A stretch of 64,000 bases of DNA from Euglena gracilis (lineage: Eukaryota), in contig CP154954.1 in assembly GCA_039621445.1 (NCBI GenBank), forward strand, positions 2,480,001 through 2,544,000, in the 5' to 3' direction. The notes below the pieces were generated by a model. The model saw only the letters and a program-made list of their open reading frames with translations. It had not been told where the DNA came from and did not search any database. The translations under genes were made by a program, and so were the position numbers. Every line of letters begins with the position of its first letter. Positions within the stretch are counted from its first letter, which is position 1. Below, one piece after another: positions 8,991-35,142 of this stretch.

Positions 8991-10318
8991 AAGGTTCTGA
9001 AGGCAAAAATTTGGGTATTTGTGCTAAATTGTTTGTTCTGAAAACATGCTTTCTCCAAAAATCATGCTTTCTCCAAAATGAGGAACGTCATCCCTGAAAA
9101 CACACACACACAAAAGAGGACGATAACCACAGCGTCAGGGTTGCTGAAAAATATGGAAATTCCACGACCATTTTTCGGTCTCTGAACCTAAAACGATTGC
9201 CAGAAGATGTGGTTTTACAATTTCGCTGGTGAATTTTCCGTCAAGTTTACTGACGTTTTTTTTTTGAAAACAATATCTGCTTGTGGCACGAAGTATGCAA
9301 AGAAAAACAAGAGTGAACACAATGTGATTGTGCAATTATTTCAACAACTGACCGCACTTTAACTTCGCATTCACCTGGAGAAATGATTGCTCTCGAAACA
9401 GAAAGCCTTCCAAATGATAATTTCACCAATTTCAGACACCCAGGGGTGAATCCTTCCGAGTCTTGGTCCCCAAGGACCAAGACTCAGAAGGACTAGCCCA
9501 CACGTCTGATTTTCAGTGAACAATGAAAGAGCAAACAAAAGACGTTGCAGTGGAGGAACATACACATCATGATCCTGACAAAATTCTCTATCCATCAAGC
9601 CAACTTTCAGATCACGCATCCCTTTGGATCAGGACTTTTGGTGGTGTGGTGTGGGTGGCCGGAGCGCACGCACACCCAAAGTAGCGGAAATCTCCGCTAC
9701 GGTCTGACGTCATCTTTTGTGCGTTTCATTCCTCAGGCTCCCCTGTTTGCATGCATTCAAAATGGGCAGCAACAGCCTGAGCTCAAGTCCAAGTGTCAGG
9801 GCCCCAAAGTGCTTCTCACACATCATATACAGTCATTCATTCATTCTCATGCGTGCGTGCGTGCTCAGGTGCCAACTTTTTGGCACCTGAGCAATGGCCC
9901 CAAAATGGTTCGAAATGGCCGCTGCTTCCCCCTGACGATTTTGTTGAGGATGTTCATATTGTTTTGTTTGGACAAGACACATTTCAGAAAAAAATTAGAA
10001 GCTTTTTTTTTCTGGGCAGGCGTTTGGCAAATACCCACCAGTCTGCAAAAGTGGTCACCCCACCCTTGAGCCCCCCCCCCCCAAAGCAGAAGGGAGGAAT
10101 GGAATCCCCGAACCCTGGGCGGGCGGCGGGACCCCCCACAGCAGTGCTGATTTGGCAGGTGGAAAGTTTTCTTTCCGCGCCGAAGAACCTTCTCCTTGCT
10201 CGTTTCCATGGTGGGTGGGAGAGGTCTGATCTGACCCCCCCCACCCGAATGGTGGGGGGGTCCACCACCCCTACCCAGGCTGTGCACTAAATGAAAGTCT
10301 GGCGCGTAGTCTGGCGGC

Positions 10319-10451
10319 GGTGCCCCGGGGGCATGGGCTGTCCCGAAAGACGCTGTTCCTGATCCAATTCATGGCCCGGCAGTGCGCCGCGGTGAAGTTC
10401 GTCGCCAAGGTGGACGACGACACGTACGTCCACGTCCCGCGCCTCGCCCTT
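10319..10451 (+). CDS. Exon of a GT31 (Galactosyl_T / beta-1,3-glycosyltransferase) family protein
   Basis: Encodes LSRKTLFLIQFMARQCAAVKFVAKVDDDTYVHVPRLAL, the typical GT31 L..KT...F..K.DDD.YV...RL motif. Flanked by CTG-gcggc| and |gcc-CAG-gggc. Confidence 0.85.
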
Positions 10452-10678
10452 GCCCAGGGGCTTGCTCGCCGGAAGGGGGGCGAGATGTCTCCCTCGGGAT
10501 GACACGCCCTGCCCACCGTGCTGCTTTTTTGGCAAGGTTGGAACTTGCGACCCCCGGGTTTGGGGGGGGGGGGGTCGCGTTGCGCAGCATACCCCAAGAT
10601 CCTGAGGCGTCGGGTCCCGAAACGGCCATCTTTAAAGAGAAATCCACCGAGATCGAGGCCCAGCTGGGACCCACAAAC

Positions 10679-11086
10679 GCTGTGCGGCGTGTTGTACTGG
10701 CGGGCGGTGCTGCCCCCGGAGGGGGACCAGGGATTTCTTGGAGTTGGAACCCACGGGAGAGGGCACTCTACCCTGGGGGTCCAGTGGGGGTTTTCCTCCA
10801 TTTTTGGCGCGAAAAGCCAGAAATTTTTTTGAGCCGACCCAAAATTGACCCCCGAAATTGGGTCCCTCGGACCACTCTCCAGGGGGGGGGGGACTCTAGG
10901 TGGGTGGGTGGGTGGGGGGCAGGGGTTTTTTTTAGCCTTGGACCCTCGCCTGTGGGGTCCCAGAGGGGGGTGGGATACACTTTTTGGCACCGAAGGAAAT
11001 TTTTTGAAAAGGGTGCTATTTTTTGGCATTTTTCGCGATTTTTTTGGGTTGTGGGTTGGGTCCCGGGACCCCCCCCCCCAGGCCAG
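10679..11086 (+). repeat. Diverged copy of 22422-22802 (exon end plus most of a CAGGGATTT MITE-intron, right TIR missing)
   Basis: gctgt.cggcgtgttgtactggcgggcggtgctgcccccggagggggaccagggatttc... is shared; internal indels distinguish the copies. Confidence 0.9.
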
Positions 11087-13361
11087 AATTTTATGACTTT
11101 TTTTTTGACTTGCATCATTTTTATGATTTTTTGTTTTTGTTGTTGTTTTTCCGGTCGCCCAGAAATTGTTCTAAAGAAACGTTTTTTTTTTGAGGGTCTT
11201 TGTCATGACTCATTCTGTTTCACTTGTGGTTTCTCCTCGGGGGGCTGAGGGGCCCCGCCAACACCGTCGCCCCTGAAGGGCCACCTGCGGCCCTCCCTCA
11301 GGCTGTACCTCTCCCCCCCCCCCCGGAGCCCCTCACGTTCACCGTTCTGTGGCAGCACAACCGCAACCCAACGAGTCAATGGCCAATTTCCCCCCCAAAA
11401 CTCCCCAAGGACCCCTCCCCCCCCCAGGACCCCCCAAGACAGGGTCCTGGGGAGAACTGGCCATGTGTGACTGCAACACAGCGACGTCGTTGGAAACGGC
11501 CCAGGTGGGTGCCAGACCAAGCTGCTTTTTGACTCAGAGTCACCCTGGGCCATGGGAGTGGTGGGTGGGTCCAGGGCTGACCCTCCCCCGGGAGGTTGGT
11601 GGTCCCGCGCCCCGGCGTCTGGGTATGGGTCGAGCCGACGTATTTTGTCGCTTCGTGTCAAAAACTACGAGGAAATGGGTTGCCAGCCAAAAAAAGTATC
11701 ACATTGGTTTTTTACTGCTGATTTTTATGAATTTTATGACTTTTTTTTTGACTTGCATCATTTTTATGATTTTTTGTTTTTGTTGTTGTTTTTCCGGTCG
11801 CCCAGAAATTGTTCTAAAGAAACGTTTTTTTTTTGAGGGTCTTTGTCATGACTCATTCTGTTTCACTTGTGGTTTCTCCTCGGGGGGCTGAGGGGTCCCG
11901 CCAACACCGTCGCCCCGCTGCCCGCCCTGAAGGGCCACCTGCGGCCCTCCCTCAGGCTGTACCTCTCCCCCCCCCCCCGAGCCCCCTCCGTTCCCCGTTC
12001 TTTGGCCGCACAAACGAAAACCAAACGAGTCAATGGCCAAATTCCCCCCCAAAACTCCCCAAGGACCCCTCCCCCCTCCAGGACCCCCAAGACAGGGTCC
12101 TGGGGAGAACTGGCCATGTGTGACTGCAACACAGCGACGTCGTTGGAAACGGCCCAGGTGGGTGCCAGACCAAGCTGCTTTTTGACTCAGAGTCACCCTG
12201 GGCCATGGGAGTGGTGGGTGGGTCCAGGGCTGACCCTCCCCCGGGAGGTTGGTGGTCCCGCGCCCCGGGGTCTGGGTATGGGTCGAGCCGACGTATTTTG
12301 TCGCTTCGTGTCAAAAACTACGAGGAAATGGGTTGCCAGCCAAAAAAAGTATCACATTGGTTTTTTACTGCTGATTTTTATGAATTTTATGAATTTCTTT
12401 GACTTGCATCATTTTTTCGATTTTTTGTTTTTGTTGTTGATTTTCCGGTCGCCCAGAAAGTGTTCTTCAGAATTGAGGGTCTTTGTCATGACTCATTCTG
12501 TTTCACTTGTGGTTTCTCCTCGGGGGGCTGAGGGGCCCCGCAAACACCGTCGCCCCGCTGCCCGCCCTGAAGGGCCACCTGCGGCCCTCTCTCAGGCTGT
12601 TCCTCTCCCCCCCCCGGAGCCCCTCACGTTCACCGTTCTGGTGGGTGGGTCCAGGGCTGACCCTCCCCCGGGAGGTTGGTGGTCCCGCGCCCCGGGGTCT
12701 GGGTATGGGTCGAGCCGACGTATTTTGTCGCTTCGTGTCAAAAACTACGAGGAAATGGGTTGCCAGCCAAAAAAAGTATCACATTGGTTTTTTACTGCTG
12801 ATTTTTATGAATTTTATGAATTTCTTTGACTTGCATCATTTTTTCGATTTTTTGTTTTTGTTGTTGATTTTCCGGTCGCCCAGAAAGTGTTCTTCAGAAT
12901 TGAGGGTCTTTGTCATGACTCATTCTGTTTCACTTGTGGTTTCTCCTCGGGGGGCTGAGGGGCCCCGCAAACACCGTCGCCCCGCTGCCCGCCCTGAAGG
13001 GCCACCTGCGGCCCTCTCTCAGGCTGTTCCTCTCCCCCCCCCGGAGCCCCTCACGTTCACCGTTCTGTGGCAGCACAACCATCTGCTGCAACGCGGCGAC
13101 CCGCAGAACCCCGGCCATGGCCTTTTGGGTTGGTGGCGAGGAGCGGTGTTAAGTACGTGGGCCCAGGGGATGGTGAGTGTCCAGAGGGTCAAAGGAAGTG
13201 ACTGAATGCATTTGGGACAGCTGAATGGAGGTTTAAAAAAAATCCCCCCGCATACTCAGGATGTGATTTCACAGGTTAATTCATCTCGTTTTCGAAATTT
13301 TTTTTGTGAAGAAAAAATATTTTTTTGACATAATCGTCATTCTTTGCACCCTTCCTGACAA
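11087..13361 (+). repeat. Second cluster of the ~650-bp array (partial unit plus 3 anchors, one shortened unit)
   Basis: Anchors at 11631, 12284 and 12711. Downstream flank matches ~5190-5465 up to cccttcctgacaa. Confidence 0.92.
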
Positions 13362-14404: not shown

Positions 14405-14983
14405 GGAGCGGTGGTGGGCGGTGTGCCGTGGGCATCAAACGGCGCGGGAAAGCCGCCCCGCGGCTGGGGCGAGCGGCGCTGCCCGGCGCGCGAGCGGTGT
14501 TCGCTGATGAGCCGGCCCCCGCCGTGCGTTCGCCGCCGCCGCGGACAACTGATGCCCCCAAATCGAGGGGCGTGGCAGTTTCCCGGCAGGCTCCCCCACG
14601 CTGACCTGTGGAGTGCCCCCAGGCTTGTGCTTCGTCGGGTGCCTACCCCACGGGGGGGGTGCTTGGGGCATGGCACCCTATAGCACCCATCCGACCCCCC
14701 CGGGGGGGGGTAGGGTTTTGGGGGTGCCTGCCCATAGCAGGCACCCCCCTCCAACCCCGGCGCAAAGGTGCCGGGGGCCCGGAAAAGGCCATTTTCAATG
14801 AAAATTTCCTGGGCCCCCCAGACCCCCCCGGGGCGTGTACCTGCTAAGGGCAGGCACCCAAGAGCACCCACCCCCCCTCCCCCCCCCCAGTCGGTAAGCA
14901 CAAGCCTGTGCGCCACCCGCGACCCCAACGTTCGTCATCACAGGTCCCTCGCGGCCCATGCGCACTCCTTCTTTGAGGGTTGA
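14405..14983 (+). CDS. Probable terminal exons (~14405-14616 and 14914-14983) ending ...PGRLPHADLWSA/TRDPNVRHHRSLAAHAHSFFEG*; possibly the GT31 gene
   Basis: Removing 14617-14913 joins two open frames and removes the TAG at 14681. VPWASNGAG weakly recalls the GT31 PYASGAG motif. Confidence 0.5.
14620..14908. mobile_element. MITE / nonconventional intron core
   Basis: Perfect 13-bp TIR caggcttgtgctt / aagcacaagcctg. Decayed 8-bp TSD agtgcccc / tgcgccac. Confidence 0.8.
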
Positions 14984-15452: not shown

Positions 15453-17016
15453 AATGATCGGTGACCCCCCCCCCAGGGTGTGGGGTCGAGCTGACTGGGA
15501 CTCCTGGGCAACCGTCAATCAAATGCCAGGGGGGCATTTGATTGCTCCATTCAGAACCATTATGGCCATTGCCAAGTCTTTTGGATCAATGGGGGCTATT
15601 TTGGTCATTTTTTGGCCACTGCTGGCCACTACCCTTTTTTGGCAAATCAACTGTTATTTTGGTCATTTGAGCCGTTTTCCATTGATAATCATCGTAATTT
15701 TCCGGAAACGGCTGAAATGGCCGAAAAAAAGTTGTTAAACCTGGTCTAAATGGCCCCAAAATGGTTCGAAATGGTCGAAAATGGTCCGAGGTTGATTGTT
15801 GTTTGTTATCGCATGGAATGGCCCCAAAGTGGCCCAAAATGGCTTGAAATGGATTGCCAGTTGGTAACCTAAACATGTCCAAATATGGCCCAGTTCCAGA
15901 AAAATCGCATATTTTCCGCACATTTTTCCGTATTTAGCGTGTATTCCCGCATGACCCCCCAAATGACTTTGCAATGCCCTAAAGCTTTGCGTGCCCGAAG
16001 AACTTCGCTGGGGGGAAGGCCGAAAAAGGTCGGTCCAAATCACATTGCCCGCCCCTTTCAATGAAAAGACACGAAAAATGATGCATCTTTTTTTGGGAAA
16101 TCAGGACGTGGTCAGCGCAAAAAAAAAATGCCATAAAATTTGCCACACTGCTCTGTATTTGATGAACAGAAGCATTAAATTATGTTACAGATAGATACAA
16201 ATGAACAGAATGTGACAACAAATTTCTTTTGGGAAATGTGATCAATCGGTCTATCAATGGTTTTGGGTGCTTCCAAATAACTTTGCAGGGGGTCGGGGCC
16301 AAAAATATCCATCCACTAATTTTTGAAAAGAGTTATTTGGGGGGGGTTATTTTTGCGCATATTTGGGGGGGCTTTTAGTGCACATCCCTCCCCAGAGGGT
16401 TGCTCGCAATTTTTTTCACCTCCATGTGTTTATTTCCAGACTTACAAACCTAGACCATGTTAAGCCAAGGTTGGAACGTTTTCAACAAAAAATGATGGAA
16501 ATTGATGGAGATTGAATTTGCATGTTTCTTTAAGAACACAACAGAAGATGAAGTGTTCCATTTTTTCCAAAAAACAGGTTTTTTTTATTTTGTTTTAAAC
16601 GAGCTGCCAGCTATGCCAGAAACACATACCAAGAAAGGTCAGCAGACATGTTAACAAACAACCCCCCACAGCACAGGGCAGCATCCCTCCTGGCTTTAAT
16701 CCCCTAAAACTTGTACACCGTGTGTCGTGTGTGCATCTCAGGCAGGTTCAACGTCCATGGATTCGAAACATGACCATTTTCAAAGGAAAATTGGCGGGTC
16801 ATCAGGCACTGGGGTCCAAAACTGACCCCCGGGGGGGGGGTGCCTGCTATATGCAGCCACCCCATAGCACCTCGCCTCCCCCAGGGTTGTTCAAAAAAAA
16901 CAGCCTGCACACAGGAAAAAAATAAATCTGGAAACCCAGCTGGTTTTTTCGCACCCCTTCTCCGTTGTCCGTGGTGCCAACCGCTTTGCTTGCCCCATCC
17001 CATCGTCCCCGCAGGA

Positions 17017-20000
17017 ATGCTGGCCTCTCTCGCACTATGGTTTTGCTTCCTCTCCGTGGCGATGAGCAAGTCCAAGACGCGGCCCTCCTCCACCCAGCCT
17101 TGGGGACAGAGCATGTGTGGCGGGATGGAGCAGCATGGCGCTGGAGGCGAGGAGCGGCCGGTTGGAATTGAAAGGGACACCCACGCCTGAGCAGACCTGT
17201 TCGTAGGACTGTGTTGTTGCTGCCGCCCACAAAGCATGGGGGTGTTTTAGACTGCGGTGGAATGGCTGGCAGAGCAGGAAGAATTGGGAGTGCCTTTGCC
17301 AGATGGCTCCAAGCACCTTCGATGACGCAAGGCGATGCGAGGGCGATACCGGAGTTTTGGAGGGCAAAGGTGGGGCTCTGAAGCAGGGCAGGGTTTTTTT
17401 GGCCATTGTCTTACAGCTTCAGCCGTTTTGGCTGCATTTGTCCAATTTTTGGCCACTTTTGGTCACTTTGGCCGTTGGTTGTTTTTGGCCATATTTCGGC
17501 CACTTTAAGCCACTTTTGACTGTTTTTTTTTTGCTGTTGTTTTTTGCCCATTTTTTTTGGTCATCTTTTACCCATTTGACCATTTTTTTGCACAATTGTG
17601 AGCCGCTTTTTGTGCTTTTGGTCATTTTACAGTCAGGACAAAAATGACAGGAAACAAAAATGATGGGTGAGAAATAAGTAATAATAAAATATGGGAAATT
17701 TTCTATTTTGATGATGGGAAAATTCAACTTTCCGCAGAAAATGTTGATAACTTTTCCCTCTTATAATGAAAGTTTTTGAGCAAAAAAGCAAAGTTTCAAA
17801 AAAAGTCAAAATGGTCTTCTGGGTGTCTTTTTTGTGATTTTTTATGAGAAACAGACCCAAAATCGACCATATGTTATATCTCCCCGTCTTTTTGTGTGTT
17901 AAATTTGACCACCTTGAACGTGGCCCCTTTAAAGGGGCATTGAAAGGGTTCGGGGGGCAAAAATGGCGGGGGAAAATATGGAAGAAATGGGTGTTTTCCC
18001 ATCATTTTTGTTCCCCGTCATTTTTGTCCGGACAAGAAACTCATTTTCTGCTTTTGGCCACTTTTGACTGGACACCCACCCACCTTTGGAGGCCATCCAA
18101 GGCTGGATGGGAATACCTGGCCGCACGAAGGGCGGATCGTTTATTTGGATTTGGGACAGGGTGCATGTGTGCAGGCGCTCGGGGTTCAGATTCATGATGT
18201 CTATTTGGGGCAAGGATGCAACAGGGACACGTTTGATCAGGTGCGTGGCAGGTGCACACTCATCTAAGCTTGTGCACGGAAGTTTCGGAGAATTTGACAG
18301 GGGGCCAAACTGGGCCAGAAGCGAAGTTGGGCACTGGCCATGAACAGACAAGTTAGTTCATGGAAGGGAGGGAGAGGGTCCCAAGGTCCCAAAAAGTTCC
18401 AAAAACAGCATTTCTTCCTGAACTGTACCGAGATATGGGGGGGGGAGGGTCCTGGGGTCCCAACTGTGCTGCCAACCCCTTCTTGTTTTCGCCGTTCTGT
18501 GGAGTGCATGAAGCAAACACTTTTTTCAGTGTCCCATGGACAATGGGAAATGAGGGATTGAATTTATTTTGAGACCCTTTTTGCGCACAAATGATTGAAA
18601 TTACACTCCTTTGCACAATTACCCAAATAACTTTTTCGTTTTTGTTTGCGCAGTTATGCAAGTGAATACAGATAATTAAACCTCACTGGAACCTTTCCTG
18701 ACGTATTTTTTATTGCATTTAAAATGGATGCATGATTGGGCGGTCTTCTGTCATGTTCCCTGAAATGTATTTTCAACCCTCTTACTCATCTTTCCGTCAG
18801 CCATTGGACAGGAATCAGATTTCGATGTCTTACAGCCTGACCCAAAAAAATAGAGTCTTCGCACCCCCTTCTTCAAAGACCTCATTCGCATGCCTTGAAA
18901 TGCTGCACAAAAGAGCACTTGTGAACCAGGGCAGTTCTCAAGGGACAGAAACGCCTTTTTTTCTCTTCAGCACCCCCCCCCCTTGCGGACCGCACATTAG
19001 GCCAAAGGGACAGCCAAAGGCCGATCTGGTGATTGAATGGGGGCAAAATGAAAATTCCAAAACCACAGTTTTGACGTTCTGGATGGATGGGCGATGGGGG
19101 TCAAGAGGCCCAAGGCATTCCCCCCCCCCAGATTCGACCCATTTTTGCCAAATATGCCATTTGCGGCCTTCTTTTTCCCCTGGATTTTGCATTTAATGGG
19201 ACCGGGTTTTTTTTTCAAATGTGGTTTTGGGGGGGGGCCTGATGTGAACCCCCCCAAAATCGGTTCTGCAAAGAGTGTGTGTGGGAACTGGACGGCTGGA
19301 GGTATTGCTCCCTTTCCTGTTTCCTGTGGCCAGTGACGGCCTCGTGGGATCGGAACGCCCCGGGTTGGGATGGGAGGTGACGCTCGACCCCCAAGGCTGT
19401 CCCCCAGGTCGGAGGGCACCCCCCTCAGGCTTCTTTTTAAAAAAGTTCGCCCCCCCCGGGGGGGGTGCTGTGGGTTGTGACGGGGATGAGCAACCCCAAA
19501 CACGGGGGGGGTCGGGTTTTGGGATGGGTGTGGGTACCTCCGCCCCTTGAGGAGCGGGGCGCTTGGCCCCGCTCCTCCTTACATACAAACTTGGCCCCCC
19601 CCTTAAGGTTGGTTTTTGGCCTTTAATTTTAGCGCATGGCCGCCAAAATTCTTAACATGCAAACTTGGCCCCCGTAAGGTTGGCCCCCGGCCTCACCTTC
19701 AATCATGGCCCAGGCCAAGCGCCCGGGGGGGAGGTAGCGCTAACCCCCCCCAAATTAAGACACCCCCCCGATTTTCAGCAAAAATCCAAAAAAAACGACC
19801 CCCACAACAGTAAGACCCCCCTCGGGATTCTTTGGGGAAAATCCAAAATAGAACCCCCCCCCAAACTGTGAAATTGTCCCTGAAATGGTGATTTTTTTAC
19901 GTTTTTTTCCATTTTGCCTATCATGTATGTGTCAAAATTGGCATTTTGCAGACGTTTTTTTGCTCATTGCCAAAAATCGCCCCAAAACCCCCTTTAGGAT

Positions 20001-21685
20001 TTTCAACAACAAACCCAAAAAGGACACCTAGGGTCTTATTATTTCAAAAATAAAATATTATTTATTAATATTACTGTTTTATATTAATATTAATATTAAC
20101 ATTAATATTTTATTCCACTCTATATTCATATTAATAATATTTACAAATATATAGCCTCGCCATAGTCTAGACTCCCCTATCCATTATCAATGTACTTACC
20201 TCACTCCTCTTCTCTTCTCATTATCATTCATCCATTACTATCATCCTCTAAATCATCTACTCGCCTCTCCTCTCCCTCCACTCCTTCCTCTCTCTCCCTC
20301 TCCTCTCCTCTCCTCTCCTCTCCTCTCCTCTCCTCTCCTTCCTCCCTTTCTTCCTCTCCTCCTCTTCCCGTCCCCTCCTCTCTTCTGTTCTCTTAATCAG
20401 TCTGAATATGATATAGTATGAATAGTAATCTTACTTAATCTTTAAGACTGAGCCCCGGAGGGGTGCGCCAGCAATGGGGAGGCACCCCGTAGCACAAGCC
20501 ACCCACCTCCTCCCCAGGGTTATTGAGAAGAAGCCTGACCCCCCTGCAGCGGCTTTTCGCTCACAGCAAAGTCACCCGCGAGCGCCATTTCCTGTGGCTG
20601 AATGTGCAGAACTGGAACCAGGCTGTATTGGCGAATCCTGATGTCTGACACCCTGCCATCAACCCCCCCCCCGAGAAACTGTTATCCCCGGAAAATTGTC
20701 CTCTGCCCTCCGTACCCGCTAAGGTGTCCTCATGGGAACCTGTCTCTTCTTCCAGCCATTTCTGAACTCCCACATGCATTAGATTTTTGATAATGCTGAG
20801 CTCTCTGAGTTCTCACATTAATTGCTCCTCTTATGCCCCACCCCACACAGCCCACAAAAAAGGTATTTCTGGTAAGTTTTTTTTAAAGAAAAATTGTGTA
20901 TTTGCAAAAAGATGGTGGATTTGCAAAAAAACAATGGTGGATTTCTTTGCCAAAGAGTGATTTTATTAAAATTATTTTTTTAAAAAAATCCAAAAATCAG
21001 GGAAAATTTTTTTGCATATTCTTCAAAAACAACAGAAATGCTCTGTGATTGAGTTGTTCCTGTCTTTCCTGCTGGAAAAGCTCGGGGTGGAGGGGGGCAT
21101 CATGACACGAGGTAGGAAGCAGGTCTCTGAGGACTCTGAGGACAGGTCAGCGACCACAGGACCAGAAGGCAATTTCCCAGAGGTCCGTCAGAGGAAAAGC
21201 ATTTGGCATCGAGAGACATTTGTGACCCTCCCCCTGCTGAGAAAAAATTCCGAAAACCTTGGTTCTTCAACAACTCACGAAACATGCTTTTTCAAGAAAA
21301 ATATCAAGCAATTAATAGGAGACAAGTTAGCAGGTGCAAAACGTACAACCATCAAGACCATCAAAGGCAAGTCTATCAAGGCCTCAACATACGAATTAAA
21401 TATTGGGTTATAAGATGGCTGGTATCAGTCTTTTGGGAGGGAAGAAGAGGACAAGGATCATGTTTCGTCAGTATGAGAGGCCGGCGCATTTTCAGGGTGA
21501 TAACCTGGGCAACACAGAGGTGGGTGTAGAACAGGGTCAGGTGGTGCCTCCAAAAATTTATTTGCGCTCCCCCAGAGATGTGAGAATTATCGACATCATC
21601 AATGTGCTTTTGTTTACCAAATGGTCATATTCCATTTACCTGGTGTGTGGGTGTGGGTGGTGGGGGGGGGGGTGTGGTGTGTGTG

Positions 21686-21747
<62 letters not shown>

Positions 21748-23340
21748 GTGTGTGTGTGTGTGTTGTGTGTGTGGGTGGGTGGGTGTAGGTGGGTGTGGGT
21801 GTTGTGGGTGTGGGTGTGTTGTGTGTGTTGTGTGATGTGTGTTGTGTGTGTTGTGTGTGGGTGGGTGGTTGGGTGGGTGGGTAGGTGGGTGTGCAGTGTC
21901 ATTATTTCCTTCTAACATTCACCTCTAACCACTTAAAGGGTTTAATTGTTGGAACACACATTTTGAGTCATTTTTGCTCATTTCGGAAGAGGAAAGGGTT
22001 CAAGGCGGCCTGCCACAAGTGTCACAGTCCGGTTCCGGCACGCCGGGTTCATGTCCCGGCCATGCCATTGCTTAACACCTGTCCCCCCCCCCGGGGGGGT
22101 GACTGACTGGTTTTTTGGCCCAGAGCCCCCCCCCCCCCGGGGGGTGGGATGGGCCCGAAAATGAAAAAGTGGCTGGCCTGGCGCCGAAGGCGCTGGAAAT
22201 TTTTTAGATTTTTTTGAGATTTTTTTGGCAAATTTTCATTGCCTCCAGGAGAGTGGCCGATCCACCCCCCCCCCCGGGGGGTAAAGTGACTGACCGGTTT
22301 TTTTCGGAAAAAGTGACTGACTCGTTTTTTTAAAAGGGAAAGTGACCTTCCCCTCCCCCCCCCCGGGTCGCTAAGCAATGGCATGGTCCCGGCTGACCGT
22401 CGCGATGGAGATGACACAAGAGCTGTACGGCGTGTTGTACTGGCGGGCGGTGCTGCCCCCGGAGGGGGACCAGGGATTTCTTGGAGTTGGAACCCACGGG
22501 GGAGGGCACTCTACCCTGGGGGTCCAGTGGGGGGTTTTCCTCCATTTTTGGCGCGAAGAGCCAGAAATTTTTTTTGAGCCGACCCAAAATTGACTTCCGA
22601 AGTTGGGTCCCTCGGACCACTCTCCAGGGGGGGGGGGACTCTAGGTGGGTGGGTGGGTGGGGGGCAGGGGCTTTGTTTAGCCTTGGACACTTTTTGGCGC
22701 CGAAGGCGCTGAAATTTTTTGAAAAGGGTGCTATTTTTTGGCATTTTTCGCGATTTTTTTTGGGTTGTGGGTTGGGTCCCGAGACCCCCCCCCCCAGGCC
22801 AGGGGGTGGGTGGGGGGACCCCCCTCCTCCCAGTCTGAAAAACCCCTAGTGGGGGATTTCCGGTGTTTCAAAAAAAAATCCCTGGCGGGGACTACCCGGT
22901 GTTCGGCCACGACTTTGCCCCGGCTCTGCCCCACGACTGCGGCCAGGTCCCCTGTTTGCTGCCACCTCGGCCCATCCCCCTCCCGCCGCATGCCTTTTGA
23001 CAGCCACGGGCTTGAATCGGCTGGCAGCCTTTTGTCAGTCAAAATGTGGGCGTGTTCCCCTCCGGGGCTCCTGCCTCGCCCCCGTGTTGGCGTACTGTGG
23101 ACGGTCCTGGCTGTCTGTTGGGGGGCCGCATTTGTTTGTGGTATTCGGATCTGTTCTGTGGCCATTTCCGTTTTTAGCTTTTGGTTTGGTTGCTCAATCC
23201 CCCCCGGCTGGTTTTTTTTGGTTTTTTTTCCAAAAAATAATAATTGTGTTTTTTTAATTCTGAAAAAGCAGCAAAGAAACTCCAAAAAGCAAAAGGGAAA
23301 AATAGCCAGGGGCCCGGCAACGTGATTGCCGCCGATGGCC
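17017..23340 (+). CDS. Multi-exon gene model: 17017-17091, 19406-19422, 20543-20615, 22018-22057, 22391-22467, 22890-22940, 23322-~23340. Signal-peptide/anchor-bearing protein, possibly the N-terminal half of the GT90-like gene continuing at 27177 and 29168
   Basis: Spliced product: MLASLALWFCFLSVAMSKSKTRPSS-RSEGTP-LQRLFAHSKVTRERHFLWLNVQNW-SVTVRFRHAGFMSR-LTVAMEMTQELYGVLYWRAVLPPEG-DYPVFGHDFAPALPHDC-VIAADG. ATG is preceded by a pyrimidine tract and cgcAG (17013-17014). Junctions follow the nnn-CAG...CTG-nnnnn rule; the first needs a 1-nt homopolymer allowance. Confidence 0.7.
17634..18031. mobile_element. MITE-like element nested in intron 1
   Basis: ~34-bp imperfect inverted repeat caggacaaaaatgacaggaaacaaaaatgatggg / cccatcatttttgttccccgtcatttttgtccgg. 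Confidence 0.7.
19426..20537. mobile_element. MITE-derived intron with nested insert
   Basis: TIR caggcttctt / aagaagcctg. Perfect 8-bp TSD acccccct (19418-19425 and 20538-20545). Confidence 0.88.
21644..21895. repeat. (GT)n microsatellite / GT-rich low complexity
   Basis: Direct inspection. Confidence 0.95.
22061..22385. mobile_element. hAT-like MITE (family A) forming an intron
   Basis: Perfect 14-bp TIR catgccattgctta / taagcaatggcatg. Perfect 8-bp TSD gtcccggc (22053-22060 and 22386-22393). Confidence 0.93.
22471..22884. mobile_element. hAT-like MITE (CAGGGATTT family) forming an intron
   Basis: TIR cagggatttctt / aaaaaatccctg. TSD agggggac / gcggggac (6 of 8 match). Confidence 0.85.
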
Positions 23341-26300
23341 GTTTTTCCCCCTGCGTTTTCTTTCACATTTGGAGTCAATTTTTTATGGATCAAACCTCTG
23401 GTTGGTGTGTATCCACAGAAAAGATTATGTACCGGTGTGCTCGGGGGCTCGACCATAGCTAGTCCAACTTTTTTTTTTTTGGATTATCTGCAGTCGAGTG
23501 GAATTTCTAGTGGACCCTCTGTGGGGAGGGGGTCCACTAGCAGGGCTGGCTAGTGGTATTTTTTTTTCCTGGTGACTGACGCAAAGCACCAGAATCAGAG
23601 TTTTTTGACCCCCCAAACACCATTTTCAGCCACTTTCGGGATTTTTCGGGACAAAATCAGCCAAAAACAAATTAAAAAACACCATGGCACGCAGTTCCAG
23701 AGTTTGGGGGGGGGGGCTGAACCCTCCCCCCAGGGAGGGGGTCTAGATGGTGGCTTTTTCCCAGTGACTTGCTAATAAGGCCAATAGTCTAGCTGGCCAG
23801 TAACATGACTGGCAAACCCCCCTGTGGGATATAAGTTGGGGTTTTAAATCAAGGAGTTGTTGGTCAAAACACGACCCACCCAAGAACGACCCCAACGCCC
23901 CCAAAATGGCAGTTTTTGGCAAAATCTGTTTAAAGAATAACGGCTTTTCAATGATGGGCAGTCACAGGGATAAGCAAAAAAAATCAGTTTTGGGGATTTG
24001 CGGCCGAAAAAAAAAAGTCCAGATGTCTTTCAATTTTCTTCCAAGTCATAAGTCAGGGTTTGCCAGATCTTAACCCGGAGAGTGTATTTGTGGGAGGCTT
24101 GTGGACCTCAAAGTATATCCCACCCCCCACCCCTGGGGAGCTCGGCCGGACCCACCCTCCCCCCCCCCGGGTCCAAGACAAAAAAAAACCCTGTGCAGGT
24201 CACAGGTAGTTTTTTTCCCACTACCTGGCCCTGCTGGTGGACCACTGGGGGGATTCACCAGTAGGATTTCCACTGGCCAGATTTTGAACTGGCCGTAGTC
24301 GAGCGAGCCCCCCCCCCCCTCAGGGGCACTGTGAACCCTGAAAACAGAAACCTGACGGGGAGGTTGGAGGTTGGCCCCAGATCCCCCCGGGGCCTTCCAA
24401 GTTAAACAGAAACCTGGCCCTGGCTCGTTCTGTTTTGCCCAGGGGGAAAGCGTTGAAGGGCCAGGCAAGGCTTGTTTGGGCTGGGAAGAACAAGGCCGAG
24501 CGTAGATATGTAAAACCCGGCGTTTTTCCGGGGTTCATTTAATCAGTGTGTATTTCCCCCAAGTTTCTTCACGGAACTGTTTTTTTACTCGGACAGTATG
24601 TGCTTGGCTTGTCGGGTCTGTTGGTGTACAGGGGCAACAAAAAAGGGTGATGAAAGGTGGCAGGCTTGACCAATTTTCTCCCTTTGTTGTTGTTGTTGTT
24701 GCACCCCCCCCCCGAGAGCAAAAAATCCATCACCGTCCAGGTGCCCTTTGGCGGCTGGACTGGACAGGAAACCAAATTCGTCAATGGACCGGAAGGGGAA
24801 AAAATAGCTGGAAACAGGCTTCTGCGTAAGAACCCTGGGTTTTTGGGTCCCCCAGGACCCCCCCCCCCCAATTTCGACCCGTCCGAGAGTGCTGACACCG
24901 AGGCCGTCGGTTCCTCGGCGTCGCCCGGCGCTCATGCCACAAAATTTCCACCGGGTTTCTTTTAATTCAGAAGACCCCCCTAAGCGGGGTCCAGGCAAGA
25001 CCCCTGGGTTCGATCTGGACCAACCCCCCACCTGCCCTCCCGGGAGGGGGGGGGCAAATTCTCTTGAGATATGCCCTGTTTTGGGTCACAAATTGCAGAA
25101 GGGCAAGAAATGTCTACTATTTTGATTTATTTTGGTCGAAGATGAGGGCGTTTTTTCTCATTGGTTAGCGGGTCCTGGGGGGGTTCTGGGGGGGTCCCGC
25201 AACTTTTTGGCAAAAATTTTGCAGCACAAGATGAGGTTCTTTTGAAGATTCGGATGGACAAAAAAAAAAGGGGAAGGGGAAAATTGAAAACTCCTTTGTT
25301 GTGGGTTTTGTTTTCCCCCCCCCCCCCCGAGATTCGACCCCCGACCTGCCCTGAGAAACCGGTTCAGGAGGTTCGGGGCGGCTGCGAGGCCCGTCTTTTG
25401 GGTTCCACCCAGACCCCCCCCTTTTCGACTTTGAAGAGGCACCCCCTCGGGGTCGCGCTGCCCCCCTTCTCAGGGCCCCCTTTTAATTCGATCTTCAAAG
25501 ACCCCAAACCTGGGCCCCTGGGGCATCTCCATGTCAATATCTGAGCCTTTGTGCGAAATTAGGGAATTATTTTGATTTGTTTTGGTAGTGGACTTTTTTT
25601 TTTTGGTCATGAGCGGGGTTGGCGGGGTTTGGGTCCCGCAACTTTTTGGCAAAAATTTTGCAACAAGATGAGATGAAGGGGGGGGTCCGGGGGGGGGTAG
25701 CCCCCCCCCCCGGCAGCGGGCGCCGAAGGCGCCCGGAACTCCACGGTCAGTGGGTTATGTGGGTACCGCCCCCCCCCCGGTAGGTCCTGGGGGTCCTGGG
25801 GGGGGGGAACTGGCCATGACTCTTGGTTAGGCAATAAAAGGTGGTTTTGAGTGACTGATTCATCAACCGAGGTCACAAAGAAGGAATCAATGCCTTGTCT
25901 TCTTGAGTTCCAGGCTCAGTTGCCTTCGACACTCATCCCCAGAAAGCACCCGAAATCCAGGCACCTGAAATTATGATTAAATGTTAATATAACCTTCTCG
26001 TGTGCATTTTCCCCAAACCGGCCAATCATGCCATTTTTGGCGCTTGTTAGGGCAAAAAGAGTGAAAAATGCAAAAAAAGTTTTCAGCTAGAACCGCCAGA
26101 AGGAAAAACGCTTGAGTGCTGGTTACCCCCCCCCCCCCCCGGGTCGGTCAGGACCCCCTTGTCCAGCCAATCAGCAACTTTTTTCCAACCAGCAGCTTTT
26201 TTCCCAGCCCCGGCCCCTCCCCCCCCCCCCGCCAACGAGTTTTATTTGTTTCCAGCTGCCCAAAGGGTGGCTGGACAGTAACAGATTTTTCGCTTTGGGG

Positions 26301-27176
26301 GGGGGGGGCAAAAATGGGCCAAACCCGGGCAAAAAATGTGTCGGAAGAGGGCAATGATATTTTGCATAATTGGCAGTTTTTTGGACATTTTTTGCAGTTT
26401 CGAGTTTTTGGTGCCTGGTTCAACCCGGGTCCGGCCCAGTTCCAGCCCGGGACCCGGGGGGGGGGGGTCAGCCAGCAACCTTTTTCCAGGCCAGCCCAAG
26501 TTTTCCAGCCTCTGCGATGGACCCCCTTGATCCAAATGATGACCTAAAATGGCAACGGAGTGTGAGATTGCCAAAAATGTTTTTAAATAAGATAGGAAGT
26601 GTTTGTTGTTGTTGCTTCATTTCAGATTTTGCACTCCTCCTTTGACCATGAGTGCTTGCGGATCGGAGTTCTGTTTCAACCTTTTGGAGGAAATCGATGT
26701 GCATGCAGTTCAACGCTGATTGGTGGAAATTCAAAACCAGATTTTTGATTGGGAAAAAAATGGCCCCCAAAAATATGTTTCCATTGTTTCCATTTCTGTC
26801 AGCCCCTAAAAGGACTAAAATGGCCAACACCGCGTTAAATGACCTAAACCCCCCTCCAAATAGCCTGGCGGGGCCCTTGCTCCTGGCGGGGGCCGAATAA
26901 CCTGGCGGGGGGCAAAAAAAGATGGTTCCGGTAACTTGGCACCCCCCTTTTTAGGCAAATTCCTTCACAGCGCTGAAAAAAAAAAGAGAGCCCAAATAGC
27001 CTGGCATGGGGGAGGGGCAGGGCCAAAAGTTGGTTCCAATAACCTGGCACCCCGCCAGGGCATTGGGGGGGGGGGGGTCACAATGACCTCAAATGGCCCG
27101 AAATGATCCGCCCATACGGGGCCAAAAAGTCATCTTCGGATTTTTAGGTTTTTTTACGGCATTTGGGCCACTTTAG

Positions 27177-27287
27177 GAAGTGCCGATGCCCGTGGCCCAT
27201 CCCGTGCGGCGGCAGCTGGTGGCGCAGTACGCCCGGCACCCGGACTTCGACGTGGCCGACATCTTCGTGGGCAACCACAAGCGGCCT
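27177..27287 (+). CDS. Duplicate of the GT90-like exon at 1143-1253
   Basis: Same translation (ORF 27180 equals ORF 1146). Confidence 0.6.
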
Positions 27288-28505
27288 GGCCAGTGCTGCG
27301 GGGTTCGCCTCCGCGGGGTGGGGGTGGCGCACAACACCGCAGAGCACACCGCGCAGAAGCAAACTCACTTCGGGCCATAACACCGAAATCCGAATTGGAA
27401 GTTCCAGCTGTTTGTTTGGGCTGTTTAGGGGGTCAAGGCTTGAAGTCAAGGAGTTTTTGGCCCAAATCCAACTCCCCCAAAATGACCCTGAAACCAAATG
27501 GGCAATTTTTAGCAAAGTACAGCATTTTTGATGTTGGTCAGTCACATGGAAATGGCCAAAAATAGTTTGGGGGGGGGTTTCAACCAAAAAAAATCGTCCC
27601 CAGCGGCTTTCATTTTTCTTCGCTGGGGGTTTATAAATCAAGCTTTGGTTGGTCATCATGGGGGGGGGGGGTTATGAGTGGGGGGGGGTATGACAGTGGG
27701 GGGATTATAACTGAAGAGGCAGTTCCCCCCCCATTTATAAACCTCCCCCCTTCGGCTGACCAACCAAACCAGATCTCATAAACCCGGGGGGTTTGTGGGT
27801 TGGGGGGTTCCGTCCATCCTTTTGAACGGAACGGGGGACAATAGCTGTGTGATTGAGAACCACCCCAAGGGCCAAGCGTTGAGGTAATGCCGAAGGGGTG
27901 GAGGAACCATGAGCGGCAGTGGAAGCAGCACCAGTGGTATGGGATGGGGTCCAATTCGGCTTAAGCGACACCCTGGTCAGGATTCCAAATTTTCCGGGGA
28001 CCAAAGAAAAAAAGCCTGTTTTGCAATTGAAGATGTTGAGCGGGGCAGCCCAATTCCAACACACCATTGCCAGCTGACTTTTGGCCATTGTTTGCACCTC
28101 CCGGGAAAAGAATTTGTTCGGCGGCTGCTGCAAAATAAGTAAAGCGCGTCAATGGAGGGAGGGGTTGGAAAACGGCTGTTGGCTGGCTGAACGCCCCCCG
28201 GATGTTTCCATGATAAGCCCGACAGAATGACTTTTAAGCCGGAGGGTACCTGCTGACACGGGGGCCGACAGCCAGCATCTTTTTTTGAACCTCGGGCGAA
28301 GGGCGGCTGGACGGTTATGGAACTTTGGCTTTCGGCGGTGCAAAACTGGGCCGAAAATGGGTGTTGATTTTTTTGGCGCCCGGTTCGACTCCACGTTGTG
28401 CCCAGTTCCAGCTGGGGGACCCGGGGGGGGAGGCTAGTCAGCCAGCATCCTTCTTCCAGCCAGCCCAAATTTTTTCCAGCCAGGGATTTTTTTAAGTTTG
28501 GACCC

Positions 28506-28539
<34 letters not shown>

Positions 28540-29167
28540 GGCCGAGCCCCCCCGGGGGGGGGGTCCCCCCGGAGGGGGGTGGGATATACTTTTCGGCGCC
28601 TATGGCGCCGAAAAAATTCTATTCTTAGCACTTTTCGCGATTTTTCGGCCATTTTTTTCGGCCAAATAACCCCCCCAGGGCTAGTGGTGAAAAAAATTTC
28701 GCTGGAGAAAATTTGGACCCCCAAAACCTACCAAAATTGCAGAATTTGCGCCATTTTTAAAGTCATCAAACAAGACACATTCAAAACGTCATTTCTACCT
28801 GATGTGCAGCGCCAGAGGAATTTTTTTCCAGTCTGGGGGGGGGGGGCGGGTATGATGAAGAATTTACTCCAAAGAAGATAAAAATCTCCTCCGGCTGAAA
28901 AGTGTGCATATCAGGGGAGCTCTCGAGGGAACTTGCGTATGCAACTTGTGTTTGTATGTGTGTGTGTGTGTTTCGGGGGGTTTTTGCTTGTTTTGTTTGT
29001 TTTTTTTGCATCGCGTTTCTTTGAAGGTCCATGTTGTGCCCCCCCCCCCGGTTGTGTGTCAGGGTTTCGCCGTCAACCTCACGAAGGAGTGAGTGTGCCG
29101 TGTGCGTGGGAAATCGGCGCGGGTCCCACCCCCCCCTTCTTCACACGGGTCCGGGACAGCCCCGGCC

Positions 29168-29440
29168 GGCGGCCATCCGATGTACGCCAGCATATGGAGG
29201 ACCACGCCCGCTACCGCTTCCTGCTGGACGCCCCGGCGAGAGGGGCCGGGCCCGTGGCTGGTCGGGCCGGCCTTTCCCCCGGTGTCTCGCCGCCTCTCCC
29301 GCGGCTGCTCCCGGTGCGTCTTTCCGGAAGAGGACTGGATGCCATGTGGCGGCCCTGGGGACATTTGGAGGCGGTTGAGATTGGGCGGGGCGAGACCTTC
29401 GGCAATGGAGCTTGCGCTCGGGCTGTACTCCTGTGCACCG
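29168..29440 (+). pseudogene. Duplicate of the frame-disrupted GT90-like exon at 3130-3400
   Basis: Same sequence including the agcatatgga lesion. Confidence 0.5.
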
Positions 29441-29545
29441 TTTGCGCATTCCTCGAGTTGCGCAAATATCCAGAAATTTTTTTTGAGAAAGTGAAAGTGC
29501 ATCCCCCCGTGGAACCTCCCCAAGAAACGCTGACCAGTCCTCATA

Positions 29546-32126
29546 CGAGCCGACGTATTTTGTCGCTTCGTGTCAAAAACTACGAGGAAATGGGTTGCCA
29601 GCCAAAAAAATATCACATTGGTTTTTTACTGCTGAATTTTATGAATTTTATGACTTTTTTTTTGACTTGCATCATTTTTATGATTTTTTGTTTTTGTTGT
29701 TGTTTTTCCGGTCGCCCAGAAATTGTTCTAAAGAAACGTTTTTTTTTTTGAGGGTCTTTGTCATGACTCATTCTGTTTCACTTGTGGTTTCTCCTCGGGG
29801 GGCTGAGGGGCCCCGCCAACACCGTCGCCCCGCTGCCCGCCCTGAAGGGCCACCTGCGGCCCTCCCTCAGGCTGTACCTCTCCCCCCCCCCCGGAGCCCC
29901 TCACGTTCACCGTTCTGTGGCAGCACAACCGCAACCCAACGAGTCAATGGCCAAATTCCCCCCCAAAACTCCCCAAGGACCCCTCCCCCCCCCCCAGGAC
30001 CCCCCAAGGCAGGGTCCTGGGGAGAACTGGCCATGTGTGACTGCAACACAGCGACGTCGTTGGAAACGGCCCAGGTGGGTCCCAGACCAAGCTGCTTTTT
30101 GACTCAGAGTCACCCTGGGCCATGGGAGTGGTGGGTGGGTCCAGGGCTGACCCTCCCCCGGGAGGTTGGTGGTCCCGCGCCCCGGGGTCTGGGTATGGGT
30201 CGAGCCGACGTATTTTGTCGCTTCGTGTCAAAAACTACGAGGAAATGGGTTGCCAGCCAAAAAAGTATCACATTGGTTTTTTACTGCTGATTTTTATGAA
30301 TTTTATGACTTTTTTTTTGACTTGCATCATTTTTATGATTTTTTGTTTTTGTTGTTGTTTTTCCGGTCGCCCAGAAATTGTTCTAAAGAAACGTTTTTTT
30401 TTTGAGGGTCTTTGTCATGACTCATTCTGTTTCACTTGTGGTTTCTCCTCGGGTGGCTGAGGGGTCCCGCCAACCCCGTCGCCCCGCTGCCCGCCCTGAA
30501 GGGCCACCTGCGGCCCTCCCTCAGGCTGTACCTCTCCCCCCCCCCCCGGAGCCCCTCACGTTCACCGTTCTGTGGCAGCACAACCGCAACCCAACGAGTC
30601 AATGGCCAAATTCCCCCCCCCTCCCCAAGGACCCCCCCCCCCCCAGGACCCCCCATCCAGAACATGTGTAGCGTTGTGTTCAACCAGATGTTTTTTCAGG
30701 TTTTTTTGTGGTCCAGCTGATTTTTTTTGGAGGGTTGGGCCATGGGTGGGTGAGCCTGTGCCCTACGAGGAAAAAGACAAGAAAGTTGTCCAGCCAGTTA
30801 GGTGGGATCATGGTTTTTGACGCCGCACATCGTTCTGGGAATCCCCGCCCTTTCTGAAACGTTTTTTTTTGTACTCCCGTCCCTGGGGGGCTGGGTTGGC
30901 CTGCAAAAATCCCAAGTCCCTCACCCCCTGAATTTGTGGGAGTCCCAGTTTTTGGCAACCTCGGTGTGTTCGGGGTCTCGTTTCCCCCCACCCCGTTGTG
31001 GGGGGACCTCGTGACGCAGACCCAACTCGTCATGCCCTGTTGTTATTCCCGTGGGGTCATGGGTTTTTGAACGTCTGGGTTGGGCTGTCCTTTTTTTTTT
31101 CCTCGAGGAATTTTTTGACGTTTTGGTAGACAAAAAAAAGTACACATTTTGCTGAACTTTATGAAAATTCATTTTTCGATTTTTTGTTTTTGTTGTCCCC
31201 CCCTGGAAACTTCAGTTCTCATTTGGACTGAGGCCCCCCAAAACTCCCCAAGGACCCCTCCCCCCTCCAGGACCCCCAAGACAGGGTCCTGGGGAGAACT
31301 GGCCATGTGTGACTGCAACACAGCGACGTCGTTGGAAACGGCCCAGGTGGGTGCCAGACCAAGCTGCTTTTTGACTCAGAGTCACCCTGGGCCATGGGAG
31401 TGGTGGGTGGGTCCAGGGCTGACCCTCCCCCGGGAGGTTGGTGGTCCCGCGCCCCGGGGTCTGGGTATGGGTCGAGCCGACGTATTTTGTCGCTTCGTGT
31501 CAAAAACTACGAGGAAATGGGTTGCCAGCCAAAAAAAGTATCACATTGGTTTTTTACTGCTGATTTTTATATTTTTTTTATGAATTTCTTTGACTTGCAT
31601 CATTTTTTCGATTTTTTGTTTTTGTTGTTGATTTTCCGGTCGCCCAGAAAGTGTTCTTCAGAATTGAGGGTCTTTGTCATGACTCATTCTGTTTCACTTG
31701 TGGTTTCTCCTCGGGGGGCTGAGGGGCCCCGCAAACACCGTCGCCCCGCTGCCCGCCCTGAAGGGCCACCTGCGGCCCTCTCTCAGGCTGTTCCTCTCCC
31801 CCCCCCCGGAGCCCCTCACGTTCACCGTTCTGTGGCAGCACAACCATCTGCTGCAACACGGCGACCCGCAGAACCCCGGCCATGGCCTTTTGGGTTGGTG
31901 GCGAGGAGCGGTGTTAAGTACGTGGGCCCAGGGCATGGTGAGTGTCCAGAGGGTCAAAGGAAGTGACTGAATGCATTTGGGACAGCTGAATGGAGGTTTA
32001 AAAAAAATCCCCCCGCATACTCAGGATGTGATTTCACAGGTTAATTCATCTCGTTTTCGAAGTTTTTTTTGTGAAGAAAAAATATTTTTTTGACATAATC
32101 GTCATTCTTTGCACCCTTCCTGACAA
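29546..32126 (+). repeat. Third cluster of the ~650-bp array
   Basis: Anchors at 29546, 30201 and 31473, plus one noisy unit between the last two. Confidence 0.9.
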
Positions 32127-35100: not shown

Positions 35101-35142
35101 GAAAAGTGGAGGCCACTCTCCATTTTCTGGGTCGCAAAACTC

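Follow-up and report, generated by a model that had tools for sequence, protein, structure and literature searches.

Introduction

Nonconventional introns account for 72% of the introns of Euglena agilis, and a splice code for them, 5'-N3CDG...CH'GN5-6|R, was obtained by knock-in mutagenesis (Nomura et al., 2025; PMC12501133). In those experiments a change of one nucleotide (nt) in either direction in the donor spacer abolished splicing, an acceptor spacer of 5 nt was best and one of 6 nt was tolerated, pairing beyond the CAG/CTG motif was needed, and a purine was preferred at the start of the downstream exon (PMC12501133). The origin of these introns has been an open question since the 1990s. 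Descent from MITEs (transposable elements of the miniature inverted-repeat type) was proposed in 2014 (Milanowski et al., PMC3935182), repeats like target-site duplications (TSD-like) are drawn at the junctions in a review in Mob DNA in 2024 (PMC11282704), and the origin was still called unclear in 2025, with "MITE-like elements" suggested (PMC12501133). A strain-specific, recently gained nonconventional intron in gapC of E. agilis has eight-nucleotide direct repeats, the longest among the introns studied, which were taken as a scar of break repair (Milanowski et al., 2016; PMC4770533). What the MITE hypothesis lacked was a group of elements that could be named, with inverted repeats and with duplications of one constant length, 8 bp. 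The present analysis deals with elements of this kind in and around a GT90-family glycosyltransferase gene of Euglena gracilis, within a stretch of 64,000 nt (assembly GCA_039621445.1, contig CP154954.1, positions 2,480,001 to 2,544,000) that is called the window hereafter and is numbered from its first letter.

Introners, which are transposon-derived spliceosomal introns, are described from Micromonas, Aureococcus, dinoflagellates and Amoebophrya (PMC11282704). The proposed Euglena case resembles them in that a non-autonomous inverted-repeat element lies in an exon, would be removed at the RNA level and contributes its duplication to the splice boundary. Introners depend on the spliceosome and on sites that are relaxed or of the GT-AG type, and those of Amoebophrya have duplications of 3-5 nt (PMC11282704), whereas removal in Euglena would be by a stem-dependent system that measures 3 and 5 nt from the stem. 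The proposal carries the introner idea over, in a concrete form, to the nonconventional introns of euglenids, and its parts (MITE origin, 8-nt repeat, spacers of 3 and 5 nt) have each been published already. A hAT-type non-autonomous element of maize, Ds, is said to have been found by Giroux and colleagues in 1994 in an exon, spliced as a de novo intron. Removal of Ds in maize uses cryptic spliceosomal sites and is usually imprecise, unlike the Euglena geometry, which would restore the exon exactly.

Two further things that this hypothesis lacked are supplied here: copies of the elements were found both in non-coding DNA and in a reading frame along which transcript-derived protein runs continuous, and the length of their duplication was tied numerically to spacer lengths that had been set by experiment. 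In the literature covered, with figures, supplements and subscription papers outside view, no paper was found that links the 8-bp duplication to spacers of 3+5 or names the source family. The tie turns the MITE hypothesis into a genome-wide test, made on the 8 nt at each side of the CAG...CTG core.

Inserted elements and their duplications

At least six nonconventional introns (I0 to I5; Table 1) split the GT90 gene into exons of 17-77 nt. Two of them, I1 and I3, are MITE insertions with 8-bp target-site duplications and belong to one related group. The perfect duplications of I1 (ACCCCCCT, at 19418-19425 and 20538-20545) and of I3 (GTCCCGGC, at 22053-22060 and 22386-22393) directly abut the inverted repeats of the elements; both had been claimed in an earlier note on this DNA, made from the letters alone, and both were verified. 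The flanks of I4 (AGGGGGAC and GCGGGGAC) matched at 6/8 positions (p = 0.004) and were taken as a decayed duplication, with both mismatches in the copy that would be intronic, as expected of an older insertion if such introns arose from MITEs.

Eight paired elements of 168-1112 bp, namely seven copies plus I4, were found in the one window, and their flanks matched at 8, 8, 8, 8, 7, 7, 6 and 5 of 8 positions. At the composition of the window a full 8/8 match has a chance probability of 1.6e-5, a match of 7/8 or better one of 4e-4, and a match of 6/8 or better one of 0.004. No exact duplication of a length other than 8 occurred among the elements, save a trivial match of 2 bp. Perfect inverted-repeat runs of 9-18 bp were present in I1, I3, I4 and the copies starting at 14620, 49706 and 55011, and the inverted repeats of 46587 and 60612 were imperfect (10-11 of 12).

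The duplications were recovered in a blind, register-fixed inverted-repeat scan (pairs 40-3000 nt apart, at least 12/14 positions paired, not of low complexity; 1,997 candidates passed), which gave three perfect 8-bp flanking repeats (I1, I3 and 46587-46942) against none with the right flank shifted by 12 bases. The matches at 9 and 11 bp were poly-C/G palindromes, and 8 bp was the sole length with genuine matches. An earlier scan with exact seeds extended outward (343 pairs) had missed the 8-bp repeats because a chance extra pair (T:A, C:G) shifted the ends by 1 nt. A relaxed scan for CA...TG ends gave 14 matches against 6 in the shifted control; the candidates retained were the seven below 1.2 kb whose repeats were good, that at 60437-60560 being doubtful, and seven long-range matches (1.17-3.9 kb, 9-10 of 12 paired) were set aside as probably due to chance. 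Among the other end dinucleotides only GG was in excess (21 vs. 9), and this came from poly-G/C palindromes.

All these elements are related. Their common end motif was CAKRC(N3)TGCTTA; with up to 2 mismatches, 18 such ends were found, where 20 shuffles had 5.7 on average and at most 9, and matches at 2 mismatches (e.g., 24416, 50008, 61199 and 63805) were not trusted given this background. The copies at 46587-46942 and 60612-60963 were 92.7% identical, and I3 was 75% and 71% identical to them, respectively. Internal sequence was common to 55011, 46587 and 60612, a 27-nt module was common to I3 and I4 (96% identity), and the ends of I1 resembled both ends of the 289-bp element at 14620-14908 (~70% over 78-86 nt). 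The common end motif and the internal modules thus indicate one related group, and not the "multiple unrelated MITE families" that the earlier note had supposed. On translation, the flanks of the four distal copies (46587, 49706, 55011 and 60612) gave no coding signal. Since the flanks differ from copy to copy and these four copies lie in non-coding-looking DNA, the group was spread by transposition and not by segmental copying. I1 and I3 look like complete, recently inserted members and I4 like an older one. Genic copies numbered two to three, all in this one gene. No further copy of I2 or of the stretch 22941-23321, inside which I5 lies, was found in the window, in a search that did not include I0. 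The sole extra "copy" of I4, at 10725-11086, brings ~50 nt of exon 4 along and is therefore a segmental fragment, not a product of transposition.

Several minor observations concern the elements. Four elements have ends of the ...ATTGCTTA type, and in three of them (I3, 46587-46942 and 49706-49873) the targets begin with GTCC in element orientation (GTCCCGGC, GTCCCTGT and GTCCACCT), which hints at a target preference. To the eye, a stretch at ~16840-16909 that closes with ...CAGCCTG, some 108 nt upstream of the start codon, is similar to I1 at its 3' end; the stretch was not recovered by blastn and may be a degenerate solo end or nothing. The copy at 49706-49873 lies just upstream, on the (-) strand, of an exon-like open reading frame (ORF) at 49422-49595 (-) that matches the first 46 of the 70 positions of RRM_1 (22.9 bits; cut-off 20.7). 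Rfam at gathering thresholds gave no match in the window.

Gene and exon structure

The genomic ORF around exon 4, used as a protein query, had one match among 100 candidates (E = 2.1e-8), P0001, which is Euglena gracilis EG_transcript_27184 of EukProt. P0001 matched Pfam Glyco_transf_90 (E = 4.2e-18), its residues 29-201 aligning to positions 90-268 of the 396-position profile. A second protein search, over 1.84 billion representatives, gave 647 matches at E ≤ 1e-3 and two at E ≤ 1e-30, and supplied P0002 and P0141. P0002 (E. gracilis EG_transcript_10572) is a paralogue, 79% identical to P0001, and has the same N-terminus (MLASLAL...) as the ORF from 17017. A comparison of P0001 with longer proteins gave no match among 1,576 candidates. 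Positions 17017-23119 (+) probably make up the 5' half of a gene for a GT90-family glycosyltransferase, or else of a sister copy that is near-identical to the EG_transcript_27184 gene, a judgement made jointly with that on the nature of I1 and I3 given below.

The locus is laid out as short stretches with strong third-position G+C (GC) bias, parted by AT-richer or repeat-rich stretches, the latter starting 3 nt ahead of a CAG (in one case CAT) and running to 5 nt past a CTG (ATG). A window scan on third-position GC (GC3) was too noisy and strand-symmetric, and no exons could be called from it. The joined exons with the corrected list formed a frame of 125 codons without a stop, with GC of 0.59, 0.49 and 0.85 at codon positions 1, 2 and 3, in agreement with the open, GC3-rich frame described in the earlier note. 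Exon 0 came into frame with the later exons after removal of the predicted I0. Retention of any of the six introns would lead to an in-frame stop after 31-124 nt.

Table 1. Exons, introns and elements of the MITE group in the window (flank matches are out of 8 positions).
Feature	Position	Strand	Description
Exon 0	17017-17091	+	Start codon at 17017; hydrophobic N-terminal anchor (MLASLAL...); first 7 residues as in the N-terminus of P0002
I0, predicted	17092-19405	+	2314 nt; N3 = ACC, CAG, 11-bp inverted repeat CAGCCTTGGGG, CTG, N6; next exon starts with A
Exon 1, predicted	19406-19422	+	17-nt micro-exon; follows from I0 and I1; matched by no protein
I1	19423-20542	+	Bounds as predicted by the published code; inverted repeat CAGGCTTCTT (10 perfect bases)
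I1 element	19426-20537	+	1112 bp; flanks 8/8
Exon 2 (LQRLF...VQNW)	20543-20615	+	Gapless against P0002; tblastn of P0002 hits 20538-20627
I2	20616-22017	+	1402 nt; N3-CAG...CTG-N5, then A; terminal pairing of just 5 bp (CAGGC/GCCTG)
Exon 3 (SVTVRFRHAGFMS-)	22018-22057	+	P0002 residues 51-64 at 22018-22059, 12/14; its MS is the start of P0001
I3	22058-22390	+	14-bp perfect inverted repeat CATGCCATTGCTTA
I3 element	22061-22385	+	325 bp; flanks 8/8
Exon 4 (LTVAMEM...LPPEG)	22391-22467	+	25/25 residues identical to P0001
I4	22468-22889	+	422 nt; N3-CAG...CTG-N5, then G; inverted repeat CAGGGATTT (9 bp); flanks 6/8
Exon 5 (DYPVFGHDFAPALPHDC)	22890-22940	+	17/17 residues identical to P0001
I5, corrected	22941-23077	+	137 nt; N3-CAG...CTG-N4, then G (or N2/N5); no flanking repeat (3/8)
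Exon 6 (APVLAYCGRSWLSV)	23078-23119	+	12/14 residues identical to P0001; 3' end uncertain
Family copy, 289 bp	14620-14908		Inverted repeat CAGGCTTGTGCTT (13 bp perfect); flanks 5/8
Family copy, 356 bp	46587-46942		Perfect 8-bp duplication ACAGGGAC; flanks AT-rich, non-coding
Family copy, 168 bp	49706-49873		Ends CATGCCATT as in I3; flanks 7/8
Family copy, 375 bp	55011-55385		18-bp perfect inverted repeat CAGGCTTCTGCTTAAGGA; flanks 7/8
Family copy, 352 bp	60612-60963		Perfect 8-bp duplication TGCCCTAC

Junctions in transcript-derived proteins

P0001, which starts with MSRLTV..., was identical to the joined exons at 57/59 residues and spans the sites of I3, I4 and I5; over exons 3-5 all 45 residues were identical. 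At the I3 site both P0001 and P0002 read MSR and then L, where unspliced DNA would give MAWSRL. At the I4 site the junction PPEG|DYPV was exact in P0001, and at the I5 site P0001 and P0002 read HDC|APVLAYCGR, which places the acceptor at 23077. P0002 aligned without gaps from exon 2 through exon 6, that is, across the sites of I2 to I5, and the I2 junction is supported by its gapless alignment there. The junctions of I0 and I1 are predicted from the continuity of the frame, because the alignment of P0002 is gapped in that region.

The earlier note had proposed five excisions, the first four being those of I1 to I4 and the fifth, given as probable, running from 22941 to 23321. The flanks of all five read as claimed and the first four held, those of I3 and I4 matching P0001 and that of I2 gapless in the paralogue, but the fifth was wrong: the note had continued ...DC with VIAADG, where P0001 has ...PHDC|APVLAYCGR, so that the intron ends at 23077 and not at 23321, and the VIAADG stretch at 23322 is not the next exon.

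P0141, derived from a Logan contig of a paralogue and compared with 22887-23163, was continuous at the sites of I3 and I4 and read straight through intron 5 and beyond. Its source is either an RNA spliced in part or the genomic DNA of a paralogue that has no I3 and I4. That I1 and I3 are spliced out of RNA from the present copy is inferred.

Intron ends and the splice code

A GT/GC-AG reading was possible in none of the six introns at any equivalent (slidable) boundary, as the earlier note had said of the interrupting elements. Its statement that the interruptions have the geometry of nonconventional introns was likewise borne out, with CAG at +4 to +6 and CTG at -8 to -6 in I2 and I4. The published code in its full form, N3-CDG/CH'G-N5-6, was found in 4/6 introns, namely I0 (N6) and I1, I2 and I4 (N5). 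The first base of the downstream exon was a purine in 5/6 introns (A, A, G, G and G), and in I1 it was C. The spacers summed to 9, 8, 8, 8, 8 and 7 nt for I0 to I5.

Terminal duplexes, computed from the first plus the last 30 nt of each intron with 200 shuffles each, were more stable than those of the shuffles in all six introns (-21.9 to -37.0 kcal/mol vs. means of -9.4 to -18.6; ~2-8.5 SD). That of I0 was -31.5 kcal/mol against -18.6 ± 3.5 in the shuffles. I0 was the top-scoring donor/acceptor pair under the published code, with spacers of 3+6 and flanks that matched at 3/8 positions. The flanks of I2 matched at 2/8 positions, and I2 holds a (GT)n array. Inside the predicted I0, at 17632-18033, a 36-nt inverted repeat (92% complementary, arms 330 nt apart) looks like another small element nested in the intron; no 8-bp flanking repeat was seen there by eye.

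The introns of this gene are comparable to euglenid nonconventional introns in the absence of GT-AG, in the terminal stem, in short junction repeats and, for the most part, in CAG at +4 to +6 and CTG at -8 to -6, I0, I2 and I4 agreeing with the code in every respect. They differ from the published ones in that I1 and I3 can be traced to a repeat family with intact 8-bp duplications, in the CAT/ATG ends of I3 and in the 4-nt acceptor spacer of I5.

Proposed removal of the elements

In the proposed mechanism the element starts with CAG right after one copy of the duplication and ends with CTG right before the other, so that the ends would fold into a terminal stem in the transcript. The euglenid machinery, which requires such a stem, would place one cut 3 nt upstream of CAG and the other 5 nt downstream of CTG. 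What is removed would then be the element plus 3+5 = 8 nt, that is, one copy of the duplication, and the messenger RNA (mRNA) as it was before the insertion would be restored without a scar. The arithmetic, put forward in the earlier note, is sound: the 3 nt ahead of CAG together with the 5 nt that follow CTG make up one copy of the duplication, and they agree with the spacer lengths set by experiment (PMC12501133). A perfect repeat gives one and the same mRNA wherever it is split; the DNA therefore does not reveal the 3+5 split, which was taken from the published code. I1 and I3 are considered rather likely to be MITE copies that serve as nonconventional introns by way of this geometry.

Tentatively, and with somewhat less than even confidence, euglenid nonconventional splicing may be tuned to one group of DNA transposons, its cuts summing to the duplication made by CAG...CTG MITEs and its action erasing exonic insertions scarlessly. 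Insertion of MITEs may have made a large share of the euglenid nonconventional introns. If true, this would explain how such elements rose to the majority intron class (72% in E. agilis), and the 8-nt repeat reported in 2016 at a newborn intron would be a transposon footprint and not a break-repair scar. Exonic insertion of such elements would seem to be low in cost in this lineage.

State of the gene copy and alternative explanations

A segment of ~9 kb is present twice, 26 kb apart (1-8473 vs. 26029-35142; 99.2-99.5% identity), and carries 3' exons of the GT90 gene (e.g., 1164-1247 = 27198-27281; 28/28 residues as in P0001). A stray fragment at 10672-11086 holds the last ~50 nt of exon 4 and most of intron 4 (93-96% identity), lacking the 3' terminus of this intron and exon 5; I4 is therefore older than that duplication.

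Several results weigh against I1 and I3 being spliced introns of an expressed gene. The window copy may be other than the expressed one: residues 60-106 of P0001 had no counterpart anywhere in the window (searches for these and for residues 159-203 gave only weak or out-of-frame matches), exon 6 differed from P0001 at 2/14 residues, and near 29190 (~29170-29200) the match to P0001 (HSMYVS|MEDHARY) changed frame. This copy may be rearranged or decaying, with the residue gap at 23120-27197 and the frame switch at ~29170-29200. As a protein cannot tell "spliced out" from "never inserted", P0001 may come from a sister copy with empty sites. The alignment of P0002 had a 5-residue gap around I0, exon 1 and I1, a region that no protein spanned exactly, and none of 14 candidates matched the exon-2 ORF used as a protein query. 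As for the code, I1 fits N3-CAG...CTG-N5 and is followed by an exon that begins with C, and the ends of I3 are CAT/ATG instead of CDG/CH'G; in the knock-in assays, splicing was lost when a single base of CAG or CTG was replaced (PMC12501133). The spacer sums were not uniformly 8, three of the six introns (I0, I2 and I5) had no duplication, and all of this comes from one 64-kb window.

These points give some weight to another explanation, in which this copy is a decaying duplicate that is not expressed, I1 and I3 are plain MITE insertions that disrupt it, the transcript comes from an empty-site sister, and I0, I2, I4 and I5 are ordinary old nonconventional introns. The lacking residues, the disturbed frame and the mismatches in exon 6 would suit such a duplicate, as would the location of the 3' exons in a 99%-identical duplication, the stray fragment of exon 4 and intron 4, and the perfect duplications, which imply very recent insertion. 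Exons 2-5 are nevertheless intact, with GC3 of 0.85 and no stops, and exons 3-5 agree with P0001 throughout. The off-code ends of I3 (CAT/ATG) and exon start of I1 (a pyrimidine), which also speak for disruption, are not decisive, because ~39% of the annotated nonconventional introns of E. agilis are off code yet spliced (PMC12501133), and I1 otherwise has the N3-CAG...CTG-N5 form. A strain-specific new intron with 8-nt repeats is, moreover, known to be spliced (PMC4770533). The decaying duplicate was on balance considered unlikely, with a share of probability that is not small.

It is also conceivable, and was considered improbable, that the MITEs are real and perhaps spliced and that 3+5 = 8 is coincidental, the machinery setting the geometry and most introns arising from break repair or from drift of conventional introns. 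The acceptor spacer tolerates 5-6 nt (PMC12501133), the sums for I0 and I5 were 9 and 7, half of the introns had no duplication, and a minority of the introns here was tied to the repeat family, I2 and the stretch 22941-23321 being without another copy; Milanowski et al. (2016) also read the 8-nt repeat as a break-repair scar (PMC4770533). Against coincidence, a donor spacer fixed at 3 and an acceptor spacer that works best at 5 together equal the length of the duplications made by the one MITE group observed in this DNA, and the ends of the family, CAG...CTG, are the very motif that the code requires. Old insertions, besides, should lose the intronic halves of their duplications, and in I4 both mismatches are in the intronic copy. 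A further alternative takes the 8-bp repeats not for transposon footprints but for chance matches or for scars left by the repair of double-strand breaks; the latter was proposed for the gapC intron of E. agilis (PMC4770533), and the C-rich, low-complexity repeat of I1 might speak for the alternative. It is highly improbable here: the repeats directly abut inverted repeats of 10-18 bp of a multi-copy family, the 8-bp repeat differs for each copy, and the shifted-flank control gave none where chance was 1.6e-5 per element. Insertion of MITEs that serve as introns was accordingly kept as the favoured explanation.

Superfamily of the elements

The elements had been called hAT-like in the earlier note. 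They do share an 8-bp duplication and CA...TG-type ends with hAT and P MITEs, and that part of the description stood. P elements also make 8-bp duplications and have CA...TG-type ends; the consensus ends are YARNG in hAT and CANRG in P, and the hAT target is nTnnnnAn. The ends of I4 (CAGGG) fit YARNG, and those of I1 (CAGGC) and I3 (CATGC) fit it in part; over the eight pairs of flanks no clear T2/A7 pattern emerged. The 10 longest ORFs of the window gave no match to a transposase domain. The superfamily label was not supported: hAT is a guess that draws on the length of the duplication and on the CA...TG ends, which P fits equally well, and P and Merlin are rival candidates.

Merlin has been reported in E. 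gracilis, with two families that have a DDE transposase, nearly perfect inverted repeats and 8-bp duplications, and with 5'-GG conserved at the ends (PMC8101967). In the literature covered, Merlin elements were the only DNA transposons found described for E. gracilis (PMC8101967). The elements of the window come from the same organism and have the same duplication length, and they start with CA, not with 5'-GG. Membership in Merlin calls for duplications of 8-9 bp, 5'-GG ends and a partner with a DDE_Tnp_IS1595 transposase; the duplication length fits and the ends do not.

Other features of the window

A further glycosyltransferase gene is the probable source of an isolated exon-like ORF at 10317-10463 (+), which has a DDD motif and matches Pfam Galactosyl_T (25.4 bits; cut-off 23). 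A block of 70-75% GC at 36000-44700, with a GC skew of ~+0.3 and long G-rich arrays (39326-40333 and others), contains ORFs with sub-threshold matches to RVT_1 (29.2 bits; cut-off 29.6) and zf-RVT (21.1; cut-off 27.5), and is possibly an element like the long interspersed nuclear elements (LINE-like). Arrays of a repeat of ~430-650 bp occur at three places (3508-5184, 11086-13361 and 29546-31845) and yield long, spurious GC3-rich ORFs; two 427-bp units of the repeat, at 12212-13067, were 100% identical.

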